Positions 20,281-49,526 of a DNA stretch of 64,000 nucleotides are shown piece after piece. Source of the stretch: Candidatus Bathyarchaeota archaeon. Lineage in GTDB: Archaea; Thermoproteota; Bathyarchaeia; Bathyarchaeales; Bathycorpusculaceae. The notes under the pieces are model-generated. The model had not been told where the DNA came from and ran no database searches. It saw nothing but the letters and a program-made list of their open reading frames with translations. The DNA lies in the NCBI GenBank assembly GCA_963782525.1, contig CAWAKC010000010.1:96001-160000 (forward strand). The letters are read 5' to 3'. Positions within the stretch are counted from its first letter, which is position 1; each line of letters begins with the position of its first letter. Both the position numbers and the translations under genes were made by a program.

Positions 20281-21621
20281 ATGCAAAAAATAAATAGCAT
20301 AACCAAGTTAGAGCTCAACATTAACGAGGCATATACTTTGAAGTTAATCTTCGTTGCAATAGATGGAATGGGAGATTTGCCGATTAAATCTTTAGGCAAC
20401 AAAACACCCCTTGAAGTTGCAGAAACTCCAAATTTGGATGCGCTTGCAAAAACAGGTAAGATTGGTTTGATGTACTCCGTGAAGAAGGGTGTGGCGCCTG
20501 AGAGTGATGTGGCGGTTATTTCGCTTTTAGGTTATGACCCATTCAAGTACAGCACAGGCAGAGGAGTTATTGAAGCTGCGGGTGCAGGCTTGAAGATGAA
20601 GGATGGCGATTTAGCCTTACGATGCAACTTTGCCACGTTGGGTGAGGGAAAAAATATTCTTGACCGGCGTGTAGCCCGTAGCTTAACCACCGAAGAAGCT
20701 ACTGAACTCAGCAAAGCAGTCAACAAAGGAATAAAACTTGCGTCATACCCTGCAACCTTCGAGTTCCGCAACACCCTCGGGCACAGGGCAGTATTGCTTA
20801 TAAAAAGTAAAGGTAAGCCTCTTTCAAGCGATATAACCAACAGCGACCCAGCCTACACAATCGTCAACGGCATAGGCGTTGCAAAAGCTGAAGTTGAAAT
20901 GGTGTTGCAAACCTGCGAACCCACCAACAAGACAGAAGCAGCAAAAGTCTCAGCCGACTTGGTAAATGAATTCATAACAAAATCTCATGATCTCTGTGAA
21001 AACCACCCCATAAACGTAAAACGTGCGGCTGAAGGAAAGCTGAAAGCAAACGTTGTTTTAACCCGCGACGCAGGGCATTTGCTTCCAAAATTCTTCAACA
21101 TAAACGAGCATTACCATGTTAACTTCGCCTGTTTAGCAGATATGCATGCAGAACGCGGCATTGCACAGCTTGCGGGTATGGATTCCTCTTTGCTTCCGCC
21201 GCCTTCAGGAAACCTCCAAAAAGACTGCGAATTCAGAGTAAAAGCGTTGCTCGATGCCCTGCCAAAGCATGATTGCTTCTACATTCACCTCAAAGGACCA
21301 GACGAACCTGGACACGACGGCAACTGCACCTTAAAAACTCAGATTATCTCAGCGATTGACAAATACTTCTTTGGACCACTTCTAAAACAGATTTCGCTTA
21401 AAGACAACCTTATCTGTGTAACCACTGACCATGCAACGCCTTGCGCTTTGAAAGTGCACAGTGACACTCCCGTTCCGGTATTGATTTCAGGTGATCACAT
21501 GGGCGATGGAAAAGCAGTCAAGTTCTGTGAGAAAGAATGTGCTAAGGGCAGTCTCGGCACCATCGAGCGTGGATGTGAGTTGATGCCAAAACTTATGAAG
21601 CTAATTAAAAAGCGGGATTAA
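20281..21621 (+). CDS. apgM: ApgM-family phosphoglycerate mutase paralog
   Basis: IDGMGD, KTPLE, PESDVA, HLKGPDEPGHDG, TDHATP...HS. Likely start TTG at 20338. Confidence 0.88.
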   Translation: MQKINSITKLELNINEAYTLKLIFVAIDGMGDLPIKSLGNKTPLEVAETPNLDALAKTGKIGLMYSVKKGVAPESDVAVISLLGYDPFKYSTGRGVIEAAGAGLKMKDGDLALRCNFATLGEGKNILDRRVARSLTTEEATELSKAVNKGIKLASYPATFEFRNTLGHRAVLLIKSKGKPLSSDITNSDPAYTIVNGIGVAKAEVEMVLQTCEPTNKTEAAKVSADLVNEFITKSHDLCENHPINVKRAAEGKLKANVVLTRDAGHLLPKFFNINEHYHVNFACLADMHAERGIAQLAGMDSSLLPPPSGNLQKDCEFRVKALLDALPKHDCFYIHLKGPDEPGHDGNCTLKTQIISAIDKYFFGPLLKQISLKDNLICVTTDHATPCALKVHSDTPVPVLISGDHMGDGKAVKFCEKECAKGSLGTIERGCELMPKLMKLIKKRD

Positions 21622-21698
21622 TTATGTTTCCTAAATTTTTCTTTTAAGCATTTAGAAATAAAAAATAGAGAAAAGGGATTTTTTATCCCTTGTTTGTT

Positions 21699-24339
21699 TT
21701 ATGGTCTTTTCCTAAACATCGATAGTACTACAACAATGAGGACTATAATGATCAGAACGAATAGTCCAGCGATTGCGGGGACAAAGTAGGTGTCAGCGGC
21801 TGATGCGGGCTGCGGTGATGGTGCTGCTGTTGCTGCTAGAGGTAGGTCATATGCCATCGTTGTTTCTGAGGATGAGCTAAAGTACGAGTTTGATCCGCTA
21901 AATGTTGCAGTGATTGTGTATGTGCCTACGCCTGCTGTAAGCATGTTTTGGTCAGCTAAGAAGGCGAATTGACCGTTAGTGTCAGAGTGTGTGTCGCCGA
22001 GGTGAACTTGGTTGCCGTTGGGGTCAGTAGCGTCGATTGACACTGGGACTCCTGTTGCATTCGTGGGTTTTGCCTGTTGCTGGTAGAGGTATTCCATCCA
22101 TTGACTCATGCTTGCGTCTGAGATTGCGGGTGTGCCTGCTGCGGGTACTCCTAAGCTTGTTTGACCTGGTGATTGATCAGTGACTGTGCCCGATATCAAG
22201 ACCTTAGCTGGGTTGTTTATGGCTGGTGCCGTTGTTACGGTTGTTTCTGTTCGTCCTTTGCCAAAACAGTATATCTGGTTGTCGTAACCGTTGAGTGCGA
22301 CCATATAGCCATCGCTGAATCCTGGGAACTGCCACCATCCTTGTTCTCTAAAGATCACTTCTCCAGTCGTTTCATTTAGACACACGACGTATTCTCCTCT
22401 GTATAGCGGAGAGTTAGGAGAGTGCTCGCCTGTTGTAGCATATAATTTTCCGTCAGCAACTGTCATTTCAAGTGTACCTGATAAGCCGCCGAAAGGATAG
22501 TCACCGTATGGGGTTTCAAGTCCGCTGCTTGGACCATTGTATGTCCAAAGATATGCACCTGTTTTTACATTGTAAGCGCTGATGGTTCCGTCGTAGCTAG
22601 TTGTGAACAGAAGATCCGCTTTTGGATCAATGTCACAAGTCATGTCATAGGATGCCCATGCAGTACTGTTTGCTCTTGGCGAAATTTCCCATATTTTTTC
22701 TCCTGTTTTAACGTTGAAGCCAGTCCATTTCTGGTCGCCCCAGGTTGATAATGTCATGACTCCGTCGGCGATGTTTCCTCCGTTAGTGTAAAGGTACATG
22801 TATCCGAACAAGCCAGTTTCGTTTGTCTGCCAGATCATTGCACCCGTGTTTGCATCGTAGCCTGTTAACTCCACTAGGGGTTCAGTTGTATTTAGTTTGT
22901 CGTTATAAGTGACCAAGACGCCATCGTCGTAAGCAAGGTGATATAAAGACTGCGAGGTCGGAGCCGGCATTGATACGTTATACATTATTCCATTTGGCCA
23001 GTTGTATACGGTCGTTGAAGAGGGTCTCCATTCTAAAACACCAGCGCCACTCGTTGAGGCGCCCCCGACAGCTTGTGTTGAATTCCACATAATCAGACGG
23101 TTGTTGCTGAGAATGAACGCAAGTAGATCCCCTTGTGAGTCATATGCGTATGCGCTGCCAGCAATGCTGTTGTTGAATGTAGAAATCAAGTTGCCAGTGG
23201 TCGCGTCCATCATCGCGTACCTTCCAGTTGCGCAGTTCCAAAGATATGCCTAGTGCGCCGTTTTGGTTTCCCGTTTCGTATAGTAGTGTTTGACCTAGAG
23301 TAAGCCCGTTGACAGTGTATAATTGACCACCAGCCGTGGTGGAGGTGTTGTTTTGGAACCAAATTGTTTGGCCAGTGCGTAGGTCAACAGCATAGTATCC
23401 GTAAGCAGGTGGGGTTTGTTTGCTGTAGTACAGAATTCCGTTGATGATGATGGGTGTAAAGTAGACTTCGTAAGACTGCCCAGTATAGTAGGTATTCTCG
23501 CCTAAACCACCAGCTACAGTTCCTCCACTCGTAATCGGCTTTGTCCATACTATGTGGCCTGAATTAGGCGCAAGTCCATTAGGCTGGTATCGATTAGTTG
23601 CTGGTGAGCTGGGTGATGCTACACCGCCAGAATTACCCGTTGCTAATAGCCAGTCTCCACCGTATGAAGCCCATTCCTTGTTGAGAGCGTTTATCGGTCT
23701 AGTCCAGTAATCGGTTGGAAGTGGCGCAGATGGATAGGCTGCAAGTGGTTCTTGCTGCACAGTGAACGTTGCCACGTTGCTTAAGGATGGTTGATAGTAG
23801 AGGTTTATGACTCCGACGTTAGTTGCAGGCCAAGCGGTTGTGGAGCGTGGAGTGTCGTTTATCCATTGTCCAGGGAAATAGAACTGAACTTTGTATGTGC
23901 CCAATTCTGTTGGATTGAAAAGAATGTAGGCGTTGCTGATAGGGTCGGCTGTGTATGGTCCCATGGTTTGGTTTTTGCCGTCTGGATCTGTGATTGTTAG
24001 CGTATAGCCCTTGAAGAGGTCACCTATGTTATTTGTGGCTGAACTGACGCCGCTGCCGTTTGCGTTCATCGATATTTCTGTCATAAACATGACAATTTCG
24101 ACTGATTGCCCTAAACCTGGATTGGGTGAACTGATAGCTACCCAAGCGTGTGTTGGAACGGAAGTTGTGAATAATGCGTTTGCGTTTGGAGTTAGTAATG
24201 CTGCGGATGAAGAGATTGCTAATATTAGAATCAGAGCGATTGCAATTTTTTTGTTTTTATCTTCTATTTTCATTTTTTTTCCTTTCCTAAAATTATTTTT
24301 TGGATGAGGCAAATTTATTTTTTTGGGAAAATGCCGCAT
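21699..24339 (-). pseudogene. PQQ-like beta-propeller surface protein split by a +1 frameshift (ORFs 23140-24339 and 21699-23213)
   Basis: Paralog of 5-2689. Removing one G at 23249-23250 (CTA GGC ATA to CTA GCA TAT) restores NQNGALAYLWNCATGRYAMMDATTG and joins the two ORFs. Confidence 0.85.
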
Positions 24340-24378
24340 CCTAGCAGTTCCAACGTAAGTGATGTATTTAAGGGGGTG

Positions 24379-24397
24379 TTGGTGGGATTTCCACCAA
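24379..24397. promoter_or_regulatory. Palindromic candidate operator in divergent promoter
   Basis: TTGGTGG-gattt-CCACCAA lies just upstream of the minus-strand TATA-like CTTAAATA (about 24365-24372) and between the propeller and TrmB genes. Confidence 0.45.
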
Positions 24398-24474
24398 TTG
24401 CCTGAGTGGTTTTTTAGTATTTCATAAGTGAACTTTCAAAAATTATAAATAATAAAAAAAATAAATTTAGATTA

Positions 24475-26274
24475 ATGGCGGCAAATTCAAGTTTGCACAG
24501 AGAAGAGAATATTAAAACTTTAGTTAGTCTGGGAATTAATGGTACACAAGCAAAAATTTGTTTAGCGCTTGCTCGGATTGGGGCGTCTACAATAAGTGAA
24601 CTCGCAGATGCTGCTGGGGTTGCTCGCCCGGACACCTATCGTGCAGTGGTTGAGCTCGAGAAAAAAGGGTTACTCGAGAAGATTGTATCGGCTCCAGCAC
24701 GGTATGAGCTTCTTCCTTTACCAGAAGTTTTATCCATACTGACAGAGCGGAAAGAAAAAGAAAATCGAGAATTACATGAAAAAACAGCCAACTTACTCAA
24801 GGAATATGAAAACTTGACAGATAAGCAATCTGTCGGCGGGTGTCAATTTGTTTTGGTTCCAAGCGGAAGGGCTTTTTCAAATCGTTTGCAAAAACTGATT
24901 GAAATCTCTCAAAAAAGCATCTGCATCATTACAATTCAAAAGACACTCGCGCAATTTCTTGATTTAGTACTAGTAAAAAATAGGGTGACAATCGGGAAGG
25001 AAGTACATGTCAGAATAATAACTGAAAAACATAGAAATAATTCTTTAACAAAAAGAATTTTTGGTCTGCAACAAGAGATCCATTTGGAAACAAGGTTCCT
25101 CGATATTATGCCCCCCTTCTCGTTGGTTACTTTCGACGAAAAAGAAATTCTTCTCTCAACACAAACTAAAAACAGAGATGATAGCTTCGTAGTCTACTCA
25201 AACAACGTCAGCTTAGTAGAATTGTCGCAGAGCCACTTTAACGACTCATGGTTCTCAGCAGACGAACCTCCTGGTTTAACTTTTAAACGGACCAAACTAC
25301 AATTTGACTATTTATGTGCAAACATGCTTAACGGCTTTGCCTACTGTAAAATGATATTCAAGAACGGGAAGCCGACAGATTTTATTTATCTCCAAATTAA
25401 CGAGGCTTTCGAAAGAATAACTGGACTAAATCGAGGACAAGTCATCGGCAAGGGAGTTTTAAAAGTAATACCTGGAATTGAAGGAGCAAACCCAGAATTA
25501 TTTGAAATATATGGCCGAGTTGCCTGCAGTGGAAAATCAGAAGAACTTGAAGCCTTCGTTAAACCCTTGAACCTCTGGCTGCATCTCTCAATTTACAGTC
25601 CGAAAAAAGGGTATTTCGCTGTAATATTTGAAGACATCACAGAGCGCAAGAAAGCGGAAGAAGAACGCGAAATTATGATTAACTTTCTAAAAATAGCTAA
25701 TTCAACAACCGACACGCGTGATTTGATCAGAGCTACCGTCGATTTTTTCCAGAAAGAATCCTGTTGTGAAGCGGTAGGAATTAGGCTTAAGGAGGGAGAT
25801 GATTATCCGTATTATGAAACGAGGGGTTTTCCCCAAGAACATGTCAGATTAGAAAACAAACTTTGCAAGACAGATGATTCTGGATGTATTGTTAGTGATT
25901 TTAAGGGCGATCCACTCATGGAATGTATGTGTGGAAACGTCATATGCGCACGGTTTGATCCGACAAAAAAGTTCTTCACGAAAAAAGGAAGCTTTTGGGC
26001 AAACGACACAACACGCCTCCTTGCGACCACCACTCCTGCCGACCGCCAAACCAACACCCGCAACCGTTGCAACGGGGAAGGGTACGAATCGGTGGCGCTT
26101 ATTGCTTTGCGCGTTGGGAATCACAAGTTGGGACTGTTACAGTTGAACGATAAGCGGAAGAACATGTTTACGCTTGAAAAAATTGAGATGTGGGAACGAA
26201 TAGCGGATAGTTTAGCACTTGGATTATCCAAAACCATCGCTGAAGAATCCCTCTACAAATACGAGCACATGTGA
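24475..26274 (+). CDS. TrmB-family HTH regulator fused to PAS and Cys-rich GAF domains
   Basis: N-terminal TrmB wHTH (ISELADAAGVARPDTYRAVVELEKKGL), PAS (NEAFERITGL...FEDITERK), GAF (MECMCGNV, RNRCNGEGYESVALIAL). Confidence 0.85.
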   Translation: MAANSSLHREENIKTLVSLGINGTQAKICLALARIGASTISELADAAGVARPDTYRAVVELEKKGLLEKIVSAPARYELLPLPEVLSILTERKEKENRELHEKTANLLKEYENLTDKQSVGGCQFVLVPSGRAFSNRLQKLIEISQKSICIITIQKTLAQFLDLVLVKNRVTIGKEVHVRIITEKHRNNSLTKRIFGLQQEIHLETRFLDIMPPFSLVTFDEKEILLSTQTKNRDDSFVVYSNNVSLVELSQSHFNDSWFSADEPPGLTFKRTKLQFDYLCANMLNGFAYCKMIFKNGKPTDFIYLQINEAFERITGLNRGQVIGKGVLKVIPGIEGANPELFEIYGRVACSGKSEELEAFVKPLNLWLHLSIYSPKKGYFAVIFEDITERKKAEEEREIMINFLKIANSTTDTRDLIRATVDFFQKESCCEAVGIRLKEGDDYPYYETRGFPQEHVRLENKLCKTDDSGCIVSDFKGDPLMECMCGNVICARFDPTKKFFTKKGSFWANDTTRLLATTTPADRQTNTRNRCNGEGYESVALIALRVGNHKLGLLQLNDKRKNMFTLEKIEMWERIADSLALGLSKTIAEESLYKYEHM

Positions 26275-26379
26275 CTTCGGTAACCCCTTTGTTTCCCATA
26301 GAAGCACTTGTTGTAGGCACAGTACAGTCACAACTTCTAAAAAACCTGCTTAAACGCTCAATACTCGAGGATAAAAGTT

Positions 26380-26961
26380 ATGAAAATCGCCATCATCGGC
26401 AAAGGCAATGTCGGAACCGCATTATCAAAGGGCCTAAGCAAAGCAGGACACGAAATAAAGTTTGGTCACCGAGACCCCGAAGAACCCGTCGCCGAAGCCG
26501 CCAAATGGGGCGAAGTAATCATACTGGCAGTACCTCACGAAAACGTCAACGACGCCATAAGAGAAATCCAACCGCAGGCCAACGGAAAAATCGTAATCGA
26601 CGTAACGAACGCTATAGGAGAAGATTACGGTTTAGGCATTAGTTGCACAACTTCCACCGCTGAAGAAACCCAGAAAAAACTTCCCAAAGCAAAAGTCGTG
26701 AAAGCATTCAACACCGTTTTCGCTCCAAACCAAAACACAGGGAAAGTTGCTGGCGAACAAATAACTGCTTTCATGGCGGGAAACGACTTGAAAGCTAAAC
26801 AGACGGTGGCACAGTTAACTCGTGACATCGGTTTTGACCCAGTCGATTGCGGACCATTAAAATCAGCGCGTTACCTGGATGCTATGGGGATTTTAATTAT
26901 CAATTTAGCGTATACTCAAAGCATGGGGAACAAGATGGGCTACAAACTGATAAAAGCATAA
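26380..26961 (+). CDS. npdG: NADPH-dependent F420 reductase family oxidoreductase
   Basis: MKIAIIGKGNVG, ILAVP, IDVTN, VVKAFNT, GFDPVDCGPL motifs. Confidence 0.85.
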   Translation: MKIAIIGKGNVGTALSKGLSKAGHEIKFGHRDPEEPVAEAAKWGEVIILAVPHENVNDAIREIQPQANGKIVIDVTNAIGEDYGLGISCTTSTAEETQKKLPKAKVVKAFNTVFAPNQNTGKVAGEQITAFMAGNDLKAKQTVAQLTRDIGFDPVDCGPLKSARYLDAMGILIINLAYTQSMGNKMGYKLIKA

Positions 26962-26990
26962 CAAAAAATCCAAATCTATTGCATGAAAAA

Positions 26991-27149
26991 GAAGTTGCTG
27001 CTACAAACGATTTTGACATCAACTGTTGCATATATCAAAACTAAAACAAAATTACCGAATCTGCCTTAGCAAGTTAATTGGTTTGAATCAGTAGGAACCA
27101 GAGAAGTTGTTGTTGCAAATGATTCTAAACACTTGTTGCAGCAATCAAA
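26991..27149 (+). repeat. ~160-bp imperfect direct repeat, left copy
   Basis: Shares ACCAGAGAAGTTGTTGTTGCAA (27097-27118), GTTAATTGGTTTGA and TATCAAAACTAA in the same order with 32557-32722. Confidence 0.88.
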
Positions 27150-27238
27150 TCTAAACTCATTGACATTAATGCATGTTATTTTAGTTTTTTTTGGGACCTT
27201 AACTGCAGTCGGAAGTCTTATATTCTAAGAATACAGAT

Positions 27239-27667
27239 ATGAGAATAGGTGATTTTTTTATGGTAGAGAGCAAAACTACTTTTCTTAAGCCTTGTTTGAA
27301 GAAATATCTTATAACTTGGAGCCTCATTTTGGGGCGCGAGGAACTTGAAAAGATATCAAGACGTCCAGATGTTCTGCAAAAAGGGCTCAAATACGTGAAG
27401 AAAACGAGCAGGCAGAGTGCGCTTGAAATCTACCGGATAGGTCAGATGGAGGAAGTGACTCATTTTGAACGAATCTCCCCTCAAGCCACCCCTGCCGCAG
27501 CGCACCCCCGCGGAATAGCAATTGCCCAAGCAACCTCAATAGAGGAAGTGAGAACTATGGTGAACTACTGGGTAGAAGGATTCGGGTTCGGAGGAGTTCC
27601 CGTGAGTAACTATCTTGAATATGACATCAAACCCTTGATTGATATTACCGCAGGAGGCAAACAATAA
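27239..27667 (+). CDS. Hypothetical protein (possible YCII/muconolactone-isomerase-like fold)
   Basis: GIAIAQATSIEEVRTMVNYW...LEYDIKPLID resembles dimeric alpha-beta barrel proteins; stop overlaps the next start (TAATG). Confidence 0.55.
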   Translation: MRIGDFFMVESKTTFLKPCLKKYLITWSLILGREELEKISRRPDVLQKGLKYVKKTSRQSALEIYRIGQMEEVTHFERISPQATPAAAHPRGIAIAQATSIEEVRTMVNYWVEGFGFGGVPVSNYLEYDIKPLIDITAGGKQ

Positions 27668-28599
27668 TGTCAGTTTTCAACGTTGTCGGAGTCGTCAGGT
27701 ATGGGCAAGCTATTCTTCAAGCAGATACGGTAAATTTTGCCTCAAACAGCAAACTGGTGCTAGCACCTTCAGAGAAAAACATGATTCCCCCAAAGTCACT
27801 AACGATAATTGCCAACACCATACAAATCGCAGGCCACGCAGAAATAACATATGACTTTGACGGGTTACCCGGCTTCGATTCAGACACACCCGCACCCCCA
27901 CAAACTGCCACAGTACCAAACGGTTCAAACGGCAGCTCAAGCCCAGGCGAAGGCAGCTACCCCCAAGCAAACAATGGCGGAAACGGACAACCAGGAAAAA
28001 CAGGCATCAAAGGCATCGCCGGTCAAGACGCACCAGAACTAGAAATCTTTGTTGGCAAAGTCGTACAAGTCAACCCAGACGCCATAACCGTGAACTTTAA
28101 AGGACAAGACGGCGGAAAAGGTGGAACCGGCGGCATCGGCGGAAAAGGCGGAGACGGACAGAAAGGCGCTGCATCACAAACCAGCGATTCATGGTATGAT
28201 GGCGACCAATGCGACCGCGAACCAGGACGAGGAGGAAACGGAGGCAAAGGCGGGGACGCCGGTTTTCCAGGCAGAGGCGGCCAAGGAGGAAACGGTGGCA
28301 TAGTCAAAGTCTTTGCAATAAAAGCATCCCTTCCGGCAGTCCAAGGCTGGAAATACATCGTAAACGGAGGCAAAGGAGCTGACCCAGGTGACCCAGGAAA
28401 AGAAGGCGCAGGCGGAGCAGGCGGTCCACAAGGAACCCAAAACGACCCATGCCCCTCAAGACCCGAATACCACGGAACAGACGGACCCCCAGGACAATTA
28501 ATGAATAACGCCGACCCTAACTGGCAGAACACATACAAAGGAAAAGATGGTTTAGACGGGGATGTAGGAACATACGAACTAACAGGAGTACCAAACTAA
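27667..28599 (+). CDS. Glycine-rich collagen-like/PGRS-like protein A
   Basis: Long GxxGxxG runs (GGKGGTGGIGGKGGDG) interleaved with short beta-strands; no signal peptide. Confidence 0.8.
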   Translation: MSVFNVVGVVRYGQAILQADTVNFASNSKLVLAPSEKNMIPPKSLTIIANTIQIAGHAEITYDFDGLPGFDSDTPAPPQTATVPNGSNGSSSPGEGSYPQANNGGNGQPGKTGIKGIAGQDAPELEIFVGKVVQVNPDAITVNFKGQDGGKGGTGGIGGKGGDGQKGAASQTSDSWYDGDQCDREPGRGGNGGKGGDAGFPGRGGQGGNGGIVKVFAIKASLPAVQGWKYIVNGGKGADPGDPGKEGAGGAGGPQGTQNDPCPSRPEYHGTDGPPGQLMNNADPNWQNTYKGKDGLDGDVGTYELTGVPN

Positions 28600-28606
28600 G
28601 GAGGAT

Positions 28607-29665
28607 ATGAGTAAAATGATCGTAACCGAAATATTTACCGTAACCGGCAACACCGATGTCGACGACGACATAATATTCTGCAGAAGATTAGTATTCGTAG
28701 GACCAAACGCTCAACTTGTAATCAAACCCAAGAAAGGCGCACCACCAGGCGCTCAACGCATCCTCAAAATAGTAACCAATGTCATCGACTCAACATTAGC
28801 CGGAGGCTCAGGAGAAATAACATACAACCTCGACGGAGACTACTTCCCAGCATATGAACTCCCAATAGGCGATTCCGGTCTTGACCCCGAGACACAAGCC
28901 AAGACTGGAGACGATGGAACCCCAAGCTTCAACCAAGGCCCAATTCCACTCCCAGACATCGCATCACCAAACTTCGACTTAATTCTAGACCCAACTCACT
29001 TTGTGGGTAATTACCCAAGAGCTTTAGATGGCGGCAGCGGCAAACCAGGCGGCAGAGGCAACAAAGGAGTGACTGGAGTCAACGCACCTATCGTGGAAAT
29101 CTGGGTCACAGAAATCGACGGAAAATTGGTTCTCGACCTTAAAGGGCAACAAGGCGGCATCGGCGGAAAAGGAGGAAACGGCCAGATCGCAGGCAACGGA
29201 CAAGGAGGATCGCTTGGAGTTCCAGGAACAGACACAACATGGCTAGGCATTCCAAACCTCACTTGCATACAAGGACCAGGATTGGGTGGCGATGGCGGTA
29301 AAGGAGGAAACGCAGGATGCGGTGGAGACGGTGGAGACGGCGGCAATGGAGGCACAGCCAAAATATTCTACACTAGTAGCGTAAACATGGCCAATGTGAC
29401 ACCAAACCTCCAAAAAGGCAAAGGCGGACAGCCTGGATCACCAGGAATAGCGGGCAAAGGGGGGAAATCAGGTCCACCTGGAGCCAATCCTCCACCATGT
29501 CCATCAGCTTTAGTCTCCCAAGATGGTGCAGACGGCGACCCATGCCTCTCAGACACTGGAGATAAACGCGGCGGAGTAGCACAACCCGGGGCAGACGGCA
29601 TAGACGGAAAGTATTACACTTACCCAATCAAAGCCATTCCCCAAATGCCCGGACTCTTTCCCTAA
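28607..29665 (+). CDS. Glycine-rich collagen-like/PGRS-like protein B (paralog of A)
   Basis: Shares EITY, YP.A..GG.G.PG..G.KG..G..AP..EI.V, KGQ.GG.GG and G.DG blocks with protein A; GGAGG RBS upstream. Confidence 0.8.
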   Translation: MSKMIVTEIFTVTGNTDVDDDIIFCRRLVFVGPNAQLVIKPKKGAPPGAQRILKIVTNVIDSTLAGGSGEITYNLDGDYFPAYELPIGDSGLDPETQAKTGDDGTPSFNQGPIPLPDIASPNFDLILDPTHFVGNYPRALDGGSGKPGGRGNKGVTGVNAPIVEIWVTEIDGKLVLDLKGQQGGIGGKGGNGQIAGNGQGGSLGVPGTDTTWLGIPNLTCIQGPGLGGDGGKGGNAGCGGDGGDGGNGGTAKIFYTSSVNMANVTPNLQKGKGGQPGSPGIAGKGGKSGPPGANPPPCPSALVSQDGADGDPCLSDTGDKRGGVAQPGADGIDGKYYTYPIKAIPQMPGLFP

Positions 29666-29712
29666 AAAATATCCACGGTTAGCTCTTTAAACGCTAACCG
29701 CAAACCCTTTTT

Positions 29713-30831
29713 TTATTTTTGCTGTAAACTAATTCCTCTATCTTGAATTTCATCAGAAACCACTTTTCTAAACAAGATAGTTCCCTTAATTGATTCTTCG
29801 ACTTCGAGCTCGGTAACTTTGCCAAGGATTGTTTCCATGTCGGCAAGAATCTCTGGACATGTTGCCTGAACTGATTTTTTGAAGGGCTCAAAGGGGACAT
29901 AGAAGGATGGTTTTCTACCTTTTCTCGCTTCTTCAAGTACCACAGGGCATCTTGAGAGTGAATATGCCCAGAACCTGAGGTAAAAATTCGCATTCGGATA
30001 ATCTTTCTTAGCAATCAATGCGTTTGCGACCAGCTCCCGGTATTCAAGCTCTAGGGGAGAGATAGAATATGCGAAATGACCTTTTGCCCTCATACTTACC
30101 CCAGAAAGTTGGCGTCCATCACACCTCAACCGCACATTATCGTAAACTCTGCGAAGCGCAGCAAGCGAGAATGATGGGTCGACATCCAAATGCAGATTAC
30201 CCCTTAACAGTGGTTCCAGCTCGCAATTGGTTTCCCCAGCCATATGCTCGAGTTTAGTCACTGGGCGAGTCAAAAGACTCATAGTGCTGCGTTTAAGGCA
30301 GTCCGCCAAGGCTGTGATATAGTAAGAATGGGCTGTCTGCAAAAAGAAGAGAGCAGCCGAAGGAAAATCCAGATTCTTTCTTGACTCTTCAAGAGCAGCA
30401 TCGCCAAACCCTATCTGGTGCCCAATTCTTTGCTCCCACACAGCCTTATCGTAAACACTCAACTTTATACTATCAATCAGGTCCCTAACGGGTTCAGATC
30501 GCAACCAGACCGGCTCATACTCGAGCAGAAGATGAGGAAGAACTTTGTAACTCGCAGCCTCGAGGGAGTCAACCATCTTTGAAACCGGTATCCATAGAAT
30601 GTCTACGAACACTCGTCCCATTTGGCTCTCCACTGTTATTCTCTCCGGGTATTCTTCGGGCCCCTCCCAGATCGATATTAAATCGACATCTGACACTTCA
30701 GGGCAATCCTCATCCAAAAAAGGTTTTCTAACTAGAACACCCAAAGATCGGGGTTCAAGCAAACTAGACGCCTTCTTTGCAGCTTCAAGAAGGCTACGGT
30801 TATCTAAGGTAAGAGGACTGTCTTCAAGCAT
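29713..30831 (-). CDS. Hypothetical protein with predicted nucleotidyltransferase-like N-terminal fold and helical C-terminal domain
   Basis: SDVDL followed by a downstream VDI strand typical of Pol-beta NTases. The GS motif is replaced by KP. Confidence 0.55.
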   Translation of the reverse strand: MLEDSPLTLDNRSLLEAAKKASSLLEPRSLGVLVRKPFLDEDCPEVSDVDLISIWEGPEEYPERITVESQMGRVFVDILWIPVSKMVDSLEAASYKVLPHLLLEYEPVWLRSEPVRDLIDSIKLSVYDKAVWEQRIGHQIGFGDAALEESRKNLDFPSAALFFLQTAHSYYITALADCLKRSTMSLLTRPVTKLEHMAGETNCELEPLLRGNLHLDVDPSFSLAALRRVYDNVRLRCDGRQLSGVSMRAKGHFAYSISPLELEYRELVANALIAKKDYPNANFYLRFWAYSLSRCPVVLEEARKGRKPSFYVPFEPFKKSVQATCPEILADMETILGKVTELEVEESIKGTILFRKVVSDEIQDRGISLQQK

Positions 30832-31907
30832 TATAGTTCACCTTTCAAAGATTTATTTTCGAACTCTGAGAGTGCCGCGAAAACTGTTGCTGTTGTGAAT
30901 AGACGCTTGTGGTCTTTGATTGCAGCGTTTATTGCTTTTCCGTCTTGGTTCCAGAAAGTCTGGTTCCAAGGGTCCATCATCGATGGATAAGGTATCCTCA
31001 GAATATGGTTGGTGCTCCAGCTTCCGTCTGATAGCTGGTGATTCAAAAGCCATCTTACGCAATTTAGTATCTTCTCTGAGAAGTTCGAGTTAGCTTCAAC
31101 CATAAGACCTTTCAATGCCAGAGCTGTTGAGAAAGGCCAACCTTCAATGGGTTGGATCGAATCGCTCCAGCTCCCATCTGCCAGCTGCGTTTTCGCAATC
31201 CAATTCTGAGCATTGCCAAAAATTTTTGCATTATTGTCTCCTGCTGCCTTTAGGGCTTCCATGCAGTTAACGGTGGCATAGAGTTTCCCGCTCCACCAGT
31301 AAGGATTCCAGTAGCCTTCCACAACTTGACCTCTTCTAATATATTCTAACGCCTTGCCGACACCTTGAGTCGAACCATTCTCAATCAACGCCTGGGTGGC
31401 CACCGCAGTGACACACAACTGGGAGGATGCCCAGCCTTCAAACGATACGGTTCCATCCAACATCATGTAACGCCCAACGTGACTTGGATTAGCATAAGTT
31501 CTAAAGCCGCCATCAACTGGACTTTGATGCTTTAACAGAAAACTAATGGCCTTCTCACGGCTGACTTGACTTTGTATCCCAAGCTTTGCGAGGAAACGAA
31601 GGCACCAAGCGGTCGAATCTCCATCGGAGGGAACACCAAAACCATAGCCCCAGCCTCCAACATCGCTCTGATGAGCAAGGACGCTGTGACCGATCGTCTC
31701 AAGCCACTTCTTCTCCTCAGGATCGTCAAGGTGACAAATTATGTTGTGTCCCACGTACCCAGAAACCCAATAAACACTCTCACCTGCCAAAGTGAGAAAA
31801 TCAGACCAAAACCCATCCGGGTTACGGCTGTCTTTTAAAAACTTGAAAGTTCTATCAAGTGAGATCCTTAACCTATCAGAATTTTCTGAATTTCTTCGAA
31901 CCGCCAT
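30831..31907 (-). CDS. Monodomain squalene-hopene-cyclase/prenyltransferase-repeat protein (class II terpene cyclase-like)
   Basis: QW-type repeats (NPDGFW, HQSDVGGWGY, HQSPVDGGF, QLADGSW, HQLSDGSW) and DGDST at the DxDD position. Confidence 0.82.
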   Translation of the reverse strand: MAVRRNSENSDRLRISLDRTFKFLKDSRNPDGFWSDFLTLAGESVYWVSGYVGHNIICHLDDPEEKKWLETIGHSVLAHQSDVGGWGYGFGVPSDGDSTAWCLRFLAKLGIQSQVSREKAISFLLKHQSPVDGGFRTYANPSHVGRYMMLDGTVSFEGWASSQLCVTAVATQALIENGSTQGVGKALEYIRRGQVVEGYWNPYWWSGKLYATVNCMEALKAAGDNNAKIFGNAQNWIAKTQLADGSWSDSIQPIEGWPFSTALALKGLMVEANSNFSEKILNCVRWLLNHQLSDGSWSTNHILRIPYPSMMDPWNQTFWNQDGKAINAAIKDHKRLFTTATVFAALSEFENKSLKGEL

Positions 31908-31971
31908 ATTTAATCCATCTGACCCATATTTATCGGAAATTCGACTTGACTTTTACTCCAGACTTGAATTC

Positions 31972-32391
31972 TCAAAGGTGAGATTGTATTATTGAAGGGA
32001 TTGTTAATACTAAGATTCCTATGACGAAGATTAGGACAAACTTGACTGAAAGGTTGTATTTCTTCGCGGTTTCGTAGCCAAGAGCAAACCAGAAGGGGTA
32101 GAGCGTTAAGAACATCATTGCTATCCAAGCTGGAAACCCCGCTTTGGTGAAGCCAGTTAAACCCTGATCGAACATTATGTATGACCCCTTCAAGTCGACA
32201 AGCCCCGGTATAATCCATCGATACCAATCCATATAGAGCGCTATTCCTCCAAACGTGAAACTCGTCAGAATAGCTGCTCCAAGTGCGTAAATCAATGACT
32301 TTGCAAACTTGTAATTAGAGGAGATGATGTACAAAATAGCACCAAAGAAGAATAAGCCAAATGGATCAACAAAAAAACTCATACTAACCAC
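31972..32391 (-). CDS. Small four-TM membrane protein
   Basis: 139-aa hydrophobic ORF; first gene of the apparent operon with the cyclase-like gene. Confidence 0.7.
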   Translation of the reverse strand: MVSMSFFVDPFGLFFFGAILYIISSNYKFAKSLIYALGAAILTSFTFGGIALYMDWYRWIIPGLVDLKGSYIMFDQGLTGFTKAGFPAWIAMMFLTLYPFWFALGYETAKKYNLSVKFVLIFVIGILVLTIPSIIQSHL

Positions 32392-32556
32392 CCAAGAGTT
32401 GTTAAAAACAGCATTTATTTCACCTAAAAGAAGTCTATTCTATATTAAGAAATAACAAATATAAGTTTATCGCGAATCTGGATTCCCGGATCTTTCGATC
32501 TACAGTTTTTTAAAACAGCAAATCTTTAGCAAAAATTTCCCATCACTCGACAAATC

Positions 32557-32722
32557 AAAGTTACTGATTCTGCTGCAAACGAGTTTTGCACATCGCTGCT
32601 ACATCTATCAAAACTAACATAACTTAAAGTTTTCAGCCTTCAAGGTTAATTGGTTTGAGCCAGTGGTGACCAGAGAAGTTGTTGTTGCAACTGCATTCTG
32701 CAAACCGGTTGCAACAATCAAA
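32557..32722 (+). repeat. ~160-bp imperfect direct repeat, right copy
   Basis: Aligns to 26991-27149; contains a perfect stem TTGTTGCAAC (32682-32691) / GTTGCAACAA (32708-32717). Confidence 0.88.
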
Positions 32723-32923
32723 CATTCCAAAACTTTGCTCAAAACAGGAACCAATACCCAAGAAAAATGCTGGATAAAATCTATCACAGGCCTAAAGCCA
32801 AGAAAAACCAATCTCAAAATCTTAGTTCCCTTTCAAAAACATACAACTTTTGATTTCTACACAATGTAAAAAACCAAGTGGCATCCAATCTTGTGTTTCA
32901 TTAACCATAAAGTTTAAGGGTAA

Positions 32924-33523
32924 ATGTTTGTTTTAGGTTGCGAGTATTCTATCTTTGAGGTTTGTGGTTTGAGCACTACTAAAGTTGAAACAATTGAGGA
33001 AAGGAAAGCGGAAGTTCTAATCAAATTAAGAAAATACAAGCTTATTGAAAAAGAAAAATTTGAAGGCGCATACGCATACATCATTGACATCCCACAGGAT
33101 AAAGAGAAAGCAATCGTTTGGTGCATTTTGGGCGAAGCTACCGTAGGCATTGCAGCCATGAATACTCTCTACAAAGTTATGAAGGAAAAAGATCTTGACC
33201 GCGCTATCGTAGTTACTGAAGGACGTTATACCCATGCCGTTAAACTCGGTGCAAAGAAGAAAAAAGTGGAGCTTTTACCTAAATCGTTCCCAGTGTTCGA
33301 CATCTTTGAGCATGCCTTGGTTCCATTCCACGAAATCCTCACCGAAAAAGAAAAGAACCAATTGCTCGCACAATTTAAAGTTAAACCTTACCAGATGCCC
33401 CAGATAAAATCTGGTGACCCAGCCGTTAAAGCGATAGGTGCAAAACCAGGCGATATACTAAAAATCACCAGAAAAAGCACAACTGCAGGCGAACACATAA
33501 CATATAGGTACGTTGTAGAATAA
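32924..33523 (+). CDS. rpoH: DNA-directed RNA polymerase subunit H/Rpo5 with RPB5-like N-terminal domain
   Basis: C-terminal FEHALVPFHEILT...QMPQIKSGDPAVKAIGAKPGDILKITRKSTTAGEHITYRYV. Likely start TTG at 32969. Confidence 0.95.
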   Translation: MFVLGCEYSIFEVCGLSTTKVETIEERKAEVLIKLRKYKLIEKEKFEGAYAYIIDIPQDKEKAIVWCILGEATVGIAAMNTLYKVMKEKDLDRAIVVTEGRYTHAVKLGAKKKKVELLPKSFPVFDIFEHALVPFHEILTEKEKNQLLAQFKVKPYQMPQIKSGDPAVKAIGAKPGDILKITRKSTTAGEHITYRYVVE

Positions 33524-33537
33524 AATAAAAAAATTTT

Positions 33538-34095
33538 TTATTTTGCAATCATTATTTCTGTTGATTTCACGATTGCAGTTACTTCATCGCCGACTTTTAT
33601 GTCTAATTCTTCAATCGCTTCTTTAGTTATAACCGCGGTTACGGTTACGGGCATTTTAACTTCCACCTTCACTTTTCCCGTAATGACTCCTTTTTCTACA
33701 GCTACAACTTTTCCTTTAAACTGGTTACGAGCACTTAACTTCAAACCTTTCACCTCCAAACAACGTGGATCAGGCAAAACTTTATCCAAATAAATCTCCG
33801 CTTGCTTATACTCACCAAGCAAACTCTTGCCCAAATCAGTCAACTTTGCTCCGCCTCCACCAGATTTGCCGCCCTTGTAGGTTTCCACGATTTGTTCTTC
33901 CATGACATCTTGAATTTCGTGTATGTAGTTCCAAACGTAGCGGTAAGACATTCCCAACGTTTGTGCTGCTTTAGAAATCGAGTTATCCTTGTCGATGGTT
34001 TCGAGGATTTCAGCGCCACCTTTGCCAATTAGGGGTTTTCCTTTGTATTCAAGCCAGGCTTTGCATGAAAGTGTATGTTTTTTGTTGGCAAGCAT
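33538..34095 (-). CDS. modE: ModE-type molybdate/tungstate-responsive regulator (wHTH plus TOBE)
   Basis: SISKAAQTLGMSYRYVW, GGKSGGGAKLT, LSARNQFKGKV...AIVKST. Confidence 0.92.
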   Translation of the reverse strand: MLANKKHTLSCKAWLEYKGKPLIGKGGAEILETIDKDNSISKAAQTLGMSYRYVWNYIHEIQDVMEEQIVETYKGGKSGGGGAKLTDLGKSLLGEYKQAEIYLDKVLPDPRCLEVKGLKLSARNQFKGKVVAVEKGVITGKVKVEVKMPVTVTAVITKEAIEELDIKVGDEVTAIVKSTEIMIAK

Positions 34096-34147
34096 TTCAT
34101 TAAATTATTAATATGATAGCCCATATAAAGATAATTTAAGCAGACAT

Positions 34148-34864
34148 TTAGAAATCTAGTTCACCGTTGATGAATTTTCGAGTAATCTCGCTTTTGGGGT
34201 TCTCAAAGAAATCCTCAGTTTTAGCTACTTCAACGATTTCGCCATTGTTGATATGAACTATTTCGTCAGCCATTCGTCTTGCTTGGTTGAGGTTATGAGT
34301 CGCCATCACAATAATTCTTCCACTGCGCTTTTGGTTAATTATTGCTTTCTCAATGATTACTGCACTGTTCGGATCCAAGTTTGCTGTGGGCTCATCCAAA
34401 AGCAAAACATTCGAATCAAGAAGAAAAGCCCGCGCTAATGCTACTCTTTGTTGCTCACCACCCGATAGTTTCCTTGCCCTTCTCTTCTCGAACCCTGAAA
34501 GCCTAACTGCTTTCAAGGCTTCAGGTACCTTTTTTGCAATCTCTTCTTGCGGAACTTTTCTGATTTTAAGACCGTATGCCAAGTTATCGAAGACGTTCAT
34601 GGTGAACATGGCGGTTTTCTGAAAAACCAAGGTTGAAACTTGACGCAATGCTTTAGCGTCTGCGTTTTGGTTGATGAAGCGGACTTGTCCGCTGTCAGGG
34701 TTCTCTAAGCCAGCTAAGATGCGCATGAGAGTGGTTTTGCCTGCTCCATTGACACCTAAAAGCACGATTATCTTGCCGCCGTCCATTTCCAACGATACTG
34801 AATTTAACGCTTTGATGCTTCGGTAGCACTTTTTAATCTCAGATAATTGAAGATGAACGCTCAC
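34148..34864 (-). CDS. tupC: Tungstate ABC transporter ATP-binding protein
   Basis: GVNGAGKTT, LSGGEQQR, LLLDEPTANLD; in operon with tupA and tupB. Confidence 0.88.
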   Translation of the reverse strand: MSVHLQLSEIKKCYRSIKALNSVSLEMDGGKIIVLLGVNGAGKTTLMRILAGLENPDSGQVRFINQNADAKALRQVSTLVFQKTAMFTMNVFDNLAYGLKIRKVPQEEIAKKVPEALKAVRLSGFEKRRARKLSGGEQQRVALARAFLLDSNVLLLDEPTANLDPNSAVIIEKAIINQKRSGRIIVMATHNLNQARRMADEIVHINNGEIVEVAKTEDFFENPKSEITRKFINGELDF

Positions 34865-34867
34865 TTC

Positions 34868-35623
34868 TTAACCCCCAAATAATCCTCTCCAAAAAACGAA
34901 TTTTCCAAGTTCTCCACGTTCATCTTTGATACGCTCGATTAGGCTTACGGTTAATGCTAGTGCGATTACGATTACCATAAGGATAATCCCGTAGGCTATT
35001 GCTAGACTGAAATCACCAAAATTTGTCCAAATTGCAATAGAAGTTGTCAGGACTCGTGTCTCGCCCAAGATGCTTCCACCTACAAGCGTTGCGATGCCGA
35101 GTTCTCCGAAACATCGATTGAATGAGGCTGTCAAGGAAAGAACAATAGACCAGATGGTTTCACGTATAAGAGTTAGGTTCGTTCTAAATCCTGATGCACC
35201 GAGAGTTCTTGCCAAGTCTCTAAGTTGAGTATCGGATGCACCAAGAGCGTTTGCGGTGAAACTCACTATTATTGGTGTGACAAGTATAGCTTCGCCGATT
35301 GCTATACCGTTGAGTGTGAAAAGCAGATTCAAAAAACCCAGTTCGCCTTGCCTAGAAAAAAGCAGAAACAAAAGTAAACCTAAAGCCACGGTTGGTATAC
35401 CTAGTAAAGCGTTAAAGATGCCTTTGATTAACCATTTTCCTCTAAAATTGTAAAGACCTAAGAGTACAGCCATCGGAATACTCCAAAGGCATGCAAGTAA
35501 GGTGCCTAATCCCGCAACGTAGATGGTTCGATAAACGGTTGCGTAGACTTCGGGGTCTCCGCTTGAGATTAATTTAATTGCTTCCTGAAGAGCTGGAACG
35601 ATTATATCGGCCATGCATATCAC
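34868..35623 (-). CDS. tupB: Tungstate ABC transporter permease
   Basis: PTVALGL, ARTLGAS, FNRCFGELG, GETRVLTTSI (TupB pattern). Confidence 0.88.
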   Translation of the reverse strand: MICMADIIVPALQEAIKLISSGDPEVYATVYRTIYVAGLGTLLACLWSIPMAVLLGLYNFRGKWLIKGIFNALLGIPTVALGLLLFLLFSRQGELGFLNLLFTLNGIAIGEAILVTPIIVSFTANALGASDTQLRDLARTLGASGFRTNLTLIRETIWSIVLSLTASFNRCFGELGIATLVGGSILGETRVLTTSIAIWTNFGDFSLAIAYGIILMVIVIALALTVSLIERIKDERGELGKFVFWRGLFGG

Positions 35624-35661
35624 AAAGAAAATAGGGGGAATTTAATTTATCTTTTACTAAC

Positions 35662-37044
35662 TTAAACGCTGTATACTTTGCTGCTCGAAGATGTCACTGC
35701 CTGGGTCGGGACGATTTTTGGTTTGTCTGCTGTGTAATAGTTTGGTGTACTTATTGAGATGTTAAGGTTGAAGTTTGCTACCAAAGCGTCGTATGTTGCT
35801 GTGTAGAGGATGTCAGCGTTGTATCGGAATGTTGCGGGGCATTCGGTTCCGCTAGCGCTGATTTGGTTACTGGAATTGATGTAAGCGTAGCTTTTGATCC
35901 AGCCAAGTAAGGTATCGTTAGAGACTGCGCCGCTAACTAAGGGTACAAACGGCGTGAAGAGTGACTGATTGTAGGCTACTTTACCGTAGTTACTTATCAA
36001 TTGTTGACCTTCGTCGGAAACTAGATAATTGACGAATAGTAGTGAAGCGTTAAAGTTTGTATTTGACAAGGCTGTATTTCGGGGGTCATCGATTATTGCG
36101 CTGTAAACGTTAAGCAGGCTTTGTTGGGCTTGAATCTGGATCTTAAGTTGAATATCGCCTTTATTGTAATATGCTAGGTAAGTGCCTATGTCAGAAATTG
36201 AGTATCCGCCTATGTTGCCATAATAGTTCGCTGCTAGAAGGGTTGGTCCCATTCCTGAACCAGTGACTTTAAACCAGGATGTTTGAGCGGTTAGTTGAGT
36301 GTAGTTGAAACCTGCAGCAGTCCAAAGCAAAATTTCCTTTGTTGCCGTTCCTGAGGCATCATTTCTTGAGAACCAAAGCACATTACTAGAGTTTTGTCCA
36401 AAGTTGTAGATGTTTTGCAATGCTTGGCTAACATTTGTTAACCCGTTGATATGTGCGGGGTCGCTTGTTGGACCGATGATGACGAAAAAGTTGTACGCTA
36501 CGATTTTGCGGTCTACGCCGTATCCTCCAGTTAGGAAGGGCAGCTCCTGTGAAGGTGAATGAACCAGTATCATATCTGCGTCGCCTCTTTGTGCAGCTTG
36601 AATCGCTGGTCCGGTACCGTAATAGAGGAAGTTCACTGTTATCCAGGGATATTTAGCTTGGAAAGCATCTTTGAGGTCATCTCTCACTACAGTTCCGTTT
36701 GCGTAGATTTCAGGGACATCTTCTAGTCCTGTGTCCTTTAGGCTGGTGGTTGATGCAACTTTGAGAGTTACTGGACTAGGCGCTGGTGTGGGAGATGGAG
36801 AGGGCGAAGGTGATGCTGCAGGGCTTGGGGTTGGAGTTGGGGAAGCGGTTGGTCGTGGTGATGCTGTTGGGGTTGGAGAGAGTGTTACAGGTGGTGAAGG
36901 AGAGGGAGAGGGTGTTGGAGTAGGAGACGGTTTTGGTTGAGCGTTGTTTTGACCATAATTATAACCTGCGTAAATTCCTATTCCCGCTACAATTATGATT
37001 ATCAGTAAGATTGCAGCTATGGCTGTTGTTTTCATTTTTTTCAC
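35662..37044 (-). CDS. tupA: Tungstate ABC transporter substrate-binding protein
   Basis: [40 protein letters not shown]; N-terminal TM and PS/PT linker. Confidence 0.9.
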
Positions 37045-49435: not shown

Positions 49436-49526
49436 ATTCTTTTCTCACTATTAGGGTATTTCCATCTTTATAGTTTTAAGGTTTTGCAAATAGCACAAAA
49501 ACTTAAATTAGAAAAAAATTATTAGA

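Follow-up and report, generated by a model that had tools for sequence, protein, structure and literature searches.

The stretch of 64,000 nucleotides analysed here (the window) is part of contig CAWAKC010000010.1 of a Candidatus Bathyarchaeota archaeon, whose genome is called G000 below; other G numbers denote genomes of the same genus and L numbers the loci that were compared. It carries a cassette of six genes, g1 to g6, which form two convergent three-gene operons between an npdG-like gene and rpoH. The open reading frame (ORF) listing showed exactly six ORFs in two convergent sets between the F420_oxidored gene and the Rpb5_C gene. Together with the Pfam matches of the flanks this confirmed the gene content, coordinates and operon arrangement that an earlier note on this DNA, made from the letters alone, had proposed. 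The forward operon consists of g1 (27260-27667), encoding a small protein of about 135 aa, g2 (27667-28599), encoding a Gly-rich protein of 310 aa, and g3 (28607-29665), encoding a 352-aa paralog of g2. On the reverse strand lie g4 (29713-30831), coding for a 372-aa nucleotidyltransferase (NTase) with a HEPN-like helical C-terminal domain, g5 (30831-31907), coding for a 358-aa terpene cyclase, and g6 (31972-32391), coding for a hydrophobic membrane protein of 139 aa. The cassette is bordered on the left by the npdG-like gene for an F420-dependent NADP oxidoreductase (26380-26961, + strand; Pfam F420_oxidored, 3e-15), which lies outside the cassette, and on the right by rpoH (32924-33523, + strand; Pfam Rpb5_C, 2e-29), whose product has an Mrr-like domain at its N-terminus; both are core genes. 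In the Pfam scan, none of the six proteins showed a transposase or integrase domain, which bears out the absence of such genes claimed in the note, and the scanned flank proteins had no recombinase domain either. No paralogs of the six proteins were found elsewhere in G000 by tblastn. As to known RNAs, the region 24000-36000 had no Rfam match (E up to 1), and the whole window had no tRNA according to ARAGORN.

The genes of the cassette are inherited and relocated as a single block. Within the genus, g4 was present in 12 of 119 other genomes (13 of 120 including G000), and it was found neither in the 200 other genomes of the family (0/200 with profile A2) nor in genomes from other families of the order (0/24). 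All 12 genus genomes with g4 carry g1-g2-g3 and g4-g5 in the same order and orientation as G000, with identities of about 46-96%. When metagenome contigs were scanned with the g2 alignment, 49 loci emerged, and a neighbour was scored only at loci with at least 300 nt of room for it. Among these, g1 stood before g2 in 37 of 39, g3 after g2 in 36 of 36, g4 convergently after g3 in 20 of 20 and g5 after g4 in 13 of 14. All three misses concern the most divergent group, where L159 lacks g1 and g5 and L160 lacks g1. In the four closest genomes (G010, G023, G299 and G314) g6 follows g5, and in metagenome loci L140, L148, L150, L151 and L157 it is found upstream of g1 on the + strand; as it occurs on either side of the block, g6 changes operon but remains in the block. 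The earlier suggestion that the six genes moved together is therefore upheld by the conserved order of g1 to g5 in the genus genomes and metagenome contigs and by the occurrence of the block at several sites. The search of gene neighbourhoods that the note had proposed showed the two operons always together, in the genus genomes with g4 as well as in the metagenome loci with room. Against its own reading, the note had considered that the operons might never occur together elsewhere and that the repeat bordering the cassette might be a dispersed element landed here by chance; the repeat did turn out to be dispersed (see below), but the operons were never found apart.

Some copies of the cassette are decaying: g4 is broken in G023 and contains stops in G014 and G320, and g1 is disrupted in G319. 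Those relatives of g2 that have a name are from metagenome-assembled genomes (MAGs) labelled Thaumarchaeota, Nitrososphaerales or Thermoproteota. The module is also mosaic. In G316 and G319 (loci L109 and L107), g5 is 82% and 79% identical to that of G000, but g4 only 66% and 65%, an identity which resembles the values of more distant genomes. An unannotated gene of about 340 aa precedes g1 in G298, G316 and G319, and genes for FAD oxidoreductases of the GMC family lie directly upstream of g6-g1 in metagenome loci L148, L150 and L151.

For g5, the earlier note's terpene-cyclase-like protein can be sharpened to an MstE-like monodomain class II terpene cyclase. A phmmer search of the PDB matched residues 16-348 of the 358 residues to 8pak_A (3.8e-42), followed by 8paj_A (1.5e-41), MstE (6sbb, 3.7e-35) and 6ij1 (3.7e-34), and Pfam assigned SQHop_cyclase_C (3.7e-16). 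The protein of about 360 aa is a single alpha/alpha-toroid domain of the beta type, homologous over its full length to monodomain class II cyclases. Its acid motif SDGDST aligns with ADADST of 8pak and 8paj and with GDADTT of MstE, so that DxD is kept. MstE uses a DxD motif in place of DxDD, and its clade includes some archaeal sequences (PMC12414744). DxDD is the form of the motif in two-domain cyclases. Full-length alignment, one toroid domain and the DxD acid motif are thus common to g5 and to MstE, 8PAK, 8PAJ and 6IJ1. Unlike that group, g5 is archaeal and belongs to a cassette with neither a UbiA-type prenyltransferase nor a polyprenyl synthase; it is translationally coupled to the NTase, the g5 stop overlapping the g4 start (g5 31907-30831, g4 from 30831, - strand), and it is always linked to Gly-rich proteins.

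The assignment of g4 as an NTase-fold protein was likewise upheld by its AlphaFold2 (AF2) model, by Foldseek and by VIA-align. The model (predicted local distance difference test, pLDDT, 94) shows an NTase alpha/beta domain followed by a HEPN-like helical domain. Foldseek matched it to the kanamycin nucleotidyltransferase ANT(4') (E 2.5e-4), and the best whole-chain match in VIA-align was again ANT(4') (6nlt_A), with Z 12.2 over 233 residues, which makes g4 a kanamycin-NTase-like member of the polymerase-beta-type NTases by fold, while residues ~130-370 matched HEPN domains at Z 9-11. Among 30 aligned sequences D50, D77, H100, R135, E261, R265 and R286 are invariant, and D48 is conserved in at least 90%. 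We infer a catalytic role for D48, D50 and D77, which lie on model strands E49-55 and E72-82. In its two-domain architecture and in the conserved acidic residues on the NTase strands g4 resembles ANT(4'), LinB and AAD(9). It differs from them by an identity of only 9-13%, by its length of 372 aa with a larger helical domain, by the lack of a Pfam family and by a context without resistance genes. No Pfam NTase family matched g4 or its 30 aligned relatives at E up to 0.1, and NCBIfam gave none. With 65 representatives among 1.84 billion clusters, this is a rare family.

The two Gly-rich proteins are indeed paralogs, as proposed before: g2 and g3 are 32% identical over 359 aa (37% in alignment A4) and have the same Gly pattern. 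For g2, the AF2 model (pLDDT 94.6) predicts beta-solenoid layers interleaved with a Gly-rich bundle of polyglycine/polyproline-II helices. With VIA-align, this modelled bundle superposed on the snow flea antifreeze protein 2pne_A with Z 10.6 and a root mean square deviation (rmsd) of 1.6 A, all 81 of 81 residues being aligned at 37% identity, and on the springtail antifreeze protein 7jjv_B with Z 8.9. The top Foldseek matches were 7jjv, 2pne, 3bog and 6f45, the gp38 protein. Homologues of g2 form 122 clusters. The 26 invariant columns of alignment A4 comprise 25 Gly and Cys182, and Trp176 and Cys262 of g2 are nearly invariant; block 171-180 is the part of the model with the lowest confidence. 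In the part of a preprint that could be consulted, which treats 'all reported' polyproline-II bundles, these are antifreeze proteins, Obg, acetophenone/acetone carboxylase, gp38 and ALK, and the word 'archaea' is absent from that part (bioRxiv 10.1101/2023.11.25.568672). The predicted g2 structure thus has its closest parallels in the snow flea and springtail antifreeze proteins, on which its Gly-rich core superposes, and in the gp38 adhesin of phage S16, where the bundle is interleaved with beta-solenoid layers as well. In contrast to the known polyglycine-II bundle proteins, g2 is archaeal, of cytoplasmic type without a signal peptide, present as two paralogs and genetically tied to enzymes.

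For the remaining two genes no family was found in Pfam, NCBIfam or PADLOC. The ORF of g1 opens at 27239, and its start is probably the ATG at 27260, since in relatives stop codons precede the MVESK start. An assignment of g1 to DUF3303 was rejected, as it rested on an ESM Atlas lead of 0.87 only and nothing consistent was obtained from Pfam at E up to 10. The module itself appears to be undescribed, since a family is lacking for four of the six proteins and literature searches yielded nothing on the gene combination; it is a combination of known enzyme kinds in a new way.

The cassette is flanked by two copies of a repeat of about 165 nt on the same strand, at 26994-27159 and 32559-32733 (nhmmer bounds). 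They are 77.6% identical over 156 nt by BLAST and were also recovered as repeat families D4 and D5 and in a MAFFT alignment, so the diverged direct repeats described in the earlier note are real. A degenerate pattern of their 46-nt core occurs twice in the window, against an expectation of 0. The element is made up of an A module, a linker and a B module, and A and B are related to each other. In the left copy, nhmmer and the alignment of full-length copies place the A module at 26994-27050 (+), the repeat search (family D4) and the alignment place the linker (GTTAATTGGTTTGA...) at 27051-27097 (+), and a degenerate B module occupies 27098-27159 (+); inside it or at its edge begins the homology with the cassettes of relatives, as seen by BLAST and in a five-genome alignment upstream of g1. 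The right copy, also on the + strand, comprises an A module at 32559-32622, which lies within a 92%-identical block common with the G010 cassette and travels with the cassette, a linker at 32623-32669 (repeat search and alignments) and a B module at 32670-32733, in which BLAST block ends and a six-sequence alignment locate a chimeric junction. Each module contains a variable-length run of GTT/GCT/GAT triplets, a core able to pair and a conserved tail, ATCAAAGACAAACCCAAATT. The pairing core of the B module is TTGTTGTTGCAAC ... GTTGCAACAACAA, and the B core reads GTTGCAAC on both arms. The ends of the element, AGAGAAG... and ...CCCAAATT, are not inverted copies of each other. Among the copies, the GTT run 5' of the B module ranges from about 3 to 11 units (e.g. 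C3:321985-322073), as in a slipping microsatellite.

A profile built from six full-length copies was run with nhmmer on the G000 contigs and gave 44 hits, which correspond to about 29 loci on 10 of 12 contigs. Seven of these are two-module copies, the remainder being short arrays or A or B modules that stand alone. For the right cassette repeat, the identity to the left repeat (78%) is exceeded by that to a copy on contig C7 (81% over 164 nt). Most copies are intergenic; judged from roughly called ORFs, about 20 of 29 have an ORF of the same orientation downstream of them. Beside other copies, ORFs of 142 and 372 aa showed no similarity to cassette proteins detectable by tblastn. Of the 119 other genus genomes 19 contain the family, irrespective of the cassette and including the cassette-free genomes G001, G012, G296, G309 and G326, and at the one locus examined for it, C1:362757, the orthologous site is occupied in G010 and G023 too. 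The repeats flanking the cassette are therefore ordinary members of a clade-specific, dispersed, two-module intergenic repeat family and not, as the earlier note had it, ends proper to the cassette. Nor is the closeness of the two copies in itself unusual, because random placement of 29 loci gives at least one pair within 5.6 kb with P = 0.80 (three such pairs were observed); for random placement of only the 7 two-module copies this probability is 0.08. Nothing on the repeat was found in the literature, including a search of Nitrososphaera with repeat terms.

The description of the repeats as structured has weak support. Only the B module has a clear potential hairpin, of 13 bp, with 85% of cells paired compared with 18.6-67.7% in slid controls. 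Whole-element folding against shuffles gave z of only -0.62 (right copy, RNA) and -1.25 (left copy, DNA), and no covariation was seen in the B hairpin. A structured RNA was rejected on these grounds. Most of 22 B copies leave one frame open on either strand; an interpretation of the repeat as a gene was nevertheless rejected as improbable, since 4 of the 22 carry frame-shifting indels, starts and stops are not conserved and the flanks diverge immediately.

The comparison of synteny covered three 80-kb stretches. Among five close genomes the cassette occupies at least three sites: npdG/rpoH in G000, flank families F18/F19 in G010 and G314, and F13/F14 in G023 and G299. More distant genomes add several further contexts, and some flank families recur in shuffled order (13 genomes). 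The cassette has thus changed place in the clade that carries the repeat family. In G002, npdG adjoins rpoH at a distance of about 220 nt with neither cassette nor repeat between them; the empty npdG-rpoH site predicted earlier does exist, but the single repeat expected there is missing. A solo B module lies upstream of rpoH in G010 and G023. In G002, where it is missing, the sequence is too diverged for a target-site duplication to be read. Other genes fill the npdG/rpoH slot of G010 (2.8 kb) and G023 (14.8 kb), and none of them codes for a recombinase. The G010 cargo (L061:17147-19934) consists of two hypothetical ORFs; that of G023 (L066:1-14420) includes a 1049-aa STAND-like NTPase with AAA_16 and TPR domains, two collagen-repeat proteins, an MG2+fn3 protein and hypothetical ORFs.

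The junction beside rpoH is a crossover inside the B module. By BLAST, the 92% homology between the cassettes of G000 and G010 spans 27111, within the left B module, to 32721, within the right one, and the rpoH-side homology with G010 begins at 32686. The crossover hence lies within ~32686-32721, about 36 nt of B. In a six-sequence alignment the right repeat of G000 is chimeric: through A, linker and B core it tracks the copy at the G010 cassette, and after the B core it tracks the rpoH-upstream copies of G010 and G023. On the left, BLAST homology with G023 begins at 27139/27185. In 5 of 5 genomes the sequence that they share upstream of g1 starts at or within the B module; further left the genomes differ, and the crossover positions vary between genomes in this five-genome alignment. 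The position of the G023 cassette corresponds to a solo B module of G000 at C10:161695-161775; in G023 one flank is followed by B, the cassette, A, 3.7 kb of DNA, another B and then the other flank. A third site has cassette-A-linker-B in G010, a solo B in G023 and no B in G000, and there the three genomes part exactly at the B edge. That the repeats define the cassette is not supported, yet at least one crossover happened in them.

These junctions suggest that the cassette moved by recombination between copies of the B module. Recombination of two B copies could, for example, excise a circle, which could re-integrate in Campbell fashion at another B copy. General homologous recombination would suffice, and a dedicated recombinase, of which none was found, would not be needed. 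We favour homologous exchange because the crossover positions differ, the Y1_Tnp elements of G000 have unrelated ends and no recombinase is linked to the cassette. Several observations weigh against this reading. The left junction is unexplained, as nothing upstream of the rpoH B module in G010 and G023 matches the left A module and linker of G000. On the npdG side, the inserts of G010 (2.8 kb) and G023 (14.8 kb) have no repeat, and the same 80 kb contain two G000-specific stretches, of 8.4 kb and 4.7 kb, whose ends are free of repeats. The repeat alone thus does not account for the variability of the slot. No repeat was detected beside the cassette in G014, G298, G302, G306, G316, G319 and G322, nor in any of the 49 metagenome loci, and the flanks differ as well in distant genus genomes and metagenome loci without detected repeats.

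The same observations might mean that the repeats are bystanders: recombination in conserved flanking genes would have shuffled a flexible island, with repeats accumulating in the same intergenic spaces. This would agree with a slot that is empty in G002, holds other cargo in G010 and G023 and has a repeat on one side only, with the shuffled flank families of the 13 genomes, with a repeat pair within 5.6 kb that is expected by chance, and with the varied flanks of distant genomes in which repeats are undetectable. We consider it unlikely in view of the right junction, which is a clean chimera with its crossover in some 36 nt of B, of the start of cassette homology, which coincides with B in all five genomes, and of the third site, which likewise breaks exactly at B.

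It is quite unlikely, too, that the repeats serve as recombination sites of a non-autonomous cassette moved by a recombinase encoded elsewhere, integron-like (attC) or of the IS200/Y1 type. The 13-bp hairpin of the B module, a B copy of G023 with a different but still palindromic inner sequence, and the junctions in or at B at three sites could be read in this way, and G000 does have three Y1_Tnp genes and eight Phage_integrase matches. All of these integrase matches are elsewhere in G000, however, the nearest being a fragment at 54525-54656 of the window, and no IntI-type recombinase with attI was found beside the cassette; nor did Pfam reveal a cognate transposase in or beside it. The repeat is dispersed as solo copies and present in cassette-free genomes, the orthologous copy at the one site examined is stably kept in G010 and G023, crossover points vary between genomes and B shows no covariation. 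The copies are dispersed rather than arrayed, and the B core GTTGCAAC does not match the integron attC core, whose consensus is RYYYAAC / GTTRRRY: GTTGCAA in the B core has C where R is required. A link to IS200-like elements was rejected, as these have their own unrelated ends and no similarity to the repeat by nhmmer. The Y1_Tnp genes resemble ordinary IS200 copies. Two identical IS200-like elements of 576 nt, both with hairpin ends, are located on contig C3 (C3:60074-60649 and C3:287737-288312), the third Y1_Tnp gene lies at C7:224408-224767, and TnpB was not found in G000.

Among known elements, the repeat shares with repetitive extragenic palindromes and bacterial interspersed mosaic elements (REP/BIME), with MITEs (miniature transposable elements bearing inverted repeats) and with integron attC sites its short, dispersed, mostly intergenic and modular nature, a core capable of forming a hairpin, and copies that coincide with rearrangement junctions. 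It differs from them in lacking both terminal inverted repeats and a linked RAYT or IntI, in occupying only about 30 loci, in its (GTT/GCT/GAT)n run of variable length and in copies that are not arrayed.

Outside the archaea, a distant relative of g4 was found on two related gammaproteobacterial MAG contigs, whose NTases are 74% identical to each other and 29-31% identical to g4. The gene order there begins with a sulfotransferase on the opposite strand, followed by the NTase and by a protein of 550-595 aa, whose first 400 residues match the g2 profile and precede a TIG domain. In the longer locus, L115, an SQHop_cyclase_C protein and a polyprenyl synthetase follow; the other contig ends after the gene for the Gly-rich protein. 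The relationship of this protein to g2 is supported by hhalign (99.7%, E 2.7e-25) and HMMER (1e-33 to 1e-37). The earlier idea of a structural Gly-rich assembly paired with lipid- or protein-modifying enzymes is consistent with this recurrence of NTase, Gly-rich protein and cyclase as neighbours in two domains of life, at the level of sequence comparison.

Judged from folds, motifs and gene neighbourhood, the module is most likely an isoprenoid-modification system. In such a system, g5 would protonate and cyclise a polyprenyl chain, and g4 would nucleotidylate a hydroxyl or phosphate of the same substrate. Supplying or holding the lipid might fall to the membrane protein g6, and g2 and g3, with g1, may act as scaffold, carrier or protein substrate of the cyclase and NTase chemistry, the conserved Trp176/Cys182 loop of g2 and g3 being a candidate site. 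A terpene nucleoside, 1-tuberculosinyladenosine of mycobacteria, offers a precedent in which a class II cyclase is paired with a nucleoside-linking enzyme. For a polypeptide substrate, the closest parallel is found in the enzymes NctPC and ChrPC of ribosomally synthesised and post-translationally modified peptides (RiPPs). A review describes MstE-like cyclase domains that act on geranylgeranyl groups attached to the tryptophan of peptides and cyclise them, and in NctPC and ChrPC an MstE-like cyclase acts on a polypeptide-attached isoprenoid (PMC13290415). The likeness extends to the bacterial relative of the module, which has a polyprenyl_synt gene beside the cyclase. In contrast to NctPC and ChrPC, the archaeal cassette has no fused or adjacent prenyltransferase, and the candidate substrates would be folded proteins of 310-352 aa instead of short precursor peptides.

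Other findings fit a function of this kind less well. The archaeal cassette contains no gene for a prenyltransferase or polyprenyl synthase, g2 and g3 have no signal peptides as judged from their N-termini, the trio of NTase, Gly-rich protein and cyclase recurs across domains in one bacterial lineage only, represented by two related MAGs, and three other Gammaproteobacteria have g2-like proteins with neither NTase nor cyclase beside them. A role in conflict or antiviral defence is conceivable, in which g4 would be a fused NTase of the MNT-HEPN type and g2 and g3, with their phage-adhesin-like fold, would be sensor, decoy or effector. The patchy distribution (13/120 genus genomes), the location in a variable island and the pseudogenised copies in some genomes are features that such a system could show; g4 combines an NTase with a HEPN-like domain and has weaker matches to Hailong HalB (Z 8.5) and to parts of MNT/HEPN toxin-antitoxin systems, and g2 resembles the gp38 adhesin tip. 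We nevertheless regard defence as distinctly doubtful. PADLOC returned 0 families for the six proteins at E up to 1, the HEPN-type R-x(4-6)-H motif is not among the conserved positions of g4, and the best whole-chain matches of g4 are small-molecule O-nucleotidyltransferases. The tight link to a cyclase with an intact motif and, in the bacterial locus, to a polyprenyl synthase suggests metabolism instead. A cold- or freeze-tolerance island, with g2 and g3 as ice-binding proteins and g4 to g6 making a membrane-adjusting cyclic terpenoid, is highly improbable: the superposition of the g2 bundle on both antifreeze proteins and the role of cyclic terpenoids as membrane regulators (PMC12414744) point in this direction, but the fold alone shows no function, being found also in Obg, carboxylases, a phage adhesin and ALK (bioRxiv 10.1101/2023.11.25.568672), g2 and g3 lack signal peptides, and the role of the NTase would be left unexplained.

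We return to a module that is inherited as a block, was presumably moved by recombination between B modules and would serve isoprenoid modification, the last judged from folds, motifs and neighbourhood; taken jointly, we hold this on balance to be probable. A more far-reaching version, which seems rather unlikely to us as a whole, would be a protein-isoprenoid system of archaea and Gammaproteobacteria in which cyclase and NTase build a cyclised, nucleotide-linked or nucleotide-activated terpenoid on, or delivered by, a heteromeric g2/g3 scaffold of beta-solenoid and polyglycine-II bundle with the Trp176/Cys182 loop as attachment site, and in which B is a portable recombination site that lets entire cassettes hop from one marked intergenic slot to another without a recombinase of their own.

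Some features of the surroundings may be added. The RpoH protein has 199 aa, with a restriction-endonuclease-like N-terminal domain (NA-iREase1, 3.5e-6; Mrr_cat, 8.1e-6) before Rpb5_C, and a search with it matched 36 of 40 other genus genomes, most of them across almost the entire length. To the left of npdG, the gene at 24475-26274 codes for a 599-aa protein with a TrmB-type helix-turn-helix and a PAS domain; it is included in a 4.7-kb stretch (21611-26277) to which nothing corresponds at this position in G010. The 8.4-kb stretch at 46401-54824 is present in G000 and missing at the same place in G010, G023 and G002; the Phage_integrase fragment at 54525-54656 lies inside it, and its ends carry no repeat copy. 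Pfam Archaeal_AmoA had no match in G000 (95.8% complete), which says little, as control genomes were equally silent.

For the biology of these archaea, the module ties the very rare polyglycine-II bundle architecture to enzymes and thereby offers a testable handle on the role of such bundles in microbes. An MstE-type cyclase with an intact motif in an archaeal accessory island, beside an NTase, hints at terpenoid chemistry that is undescribed in archaea, for example a terpene-nucleotide or protein-terpenoid product. The three sites, the empty site and the chimeric junction together provide a natural example of a short dispersed repeat as a crossover point. They illustrate how a multi-gene cassette could move without a transposase, which bears on the reshuffling of flexible genomic islands in uncultured archaea.

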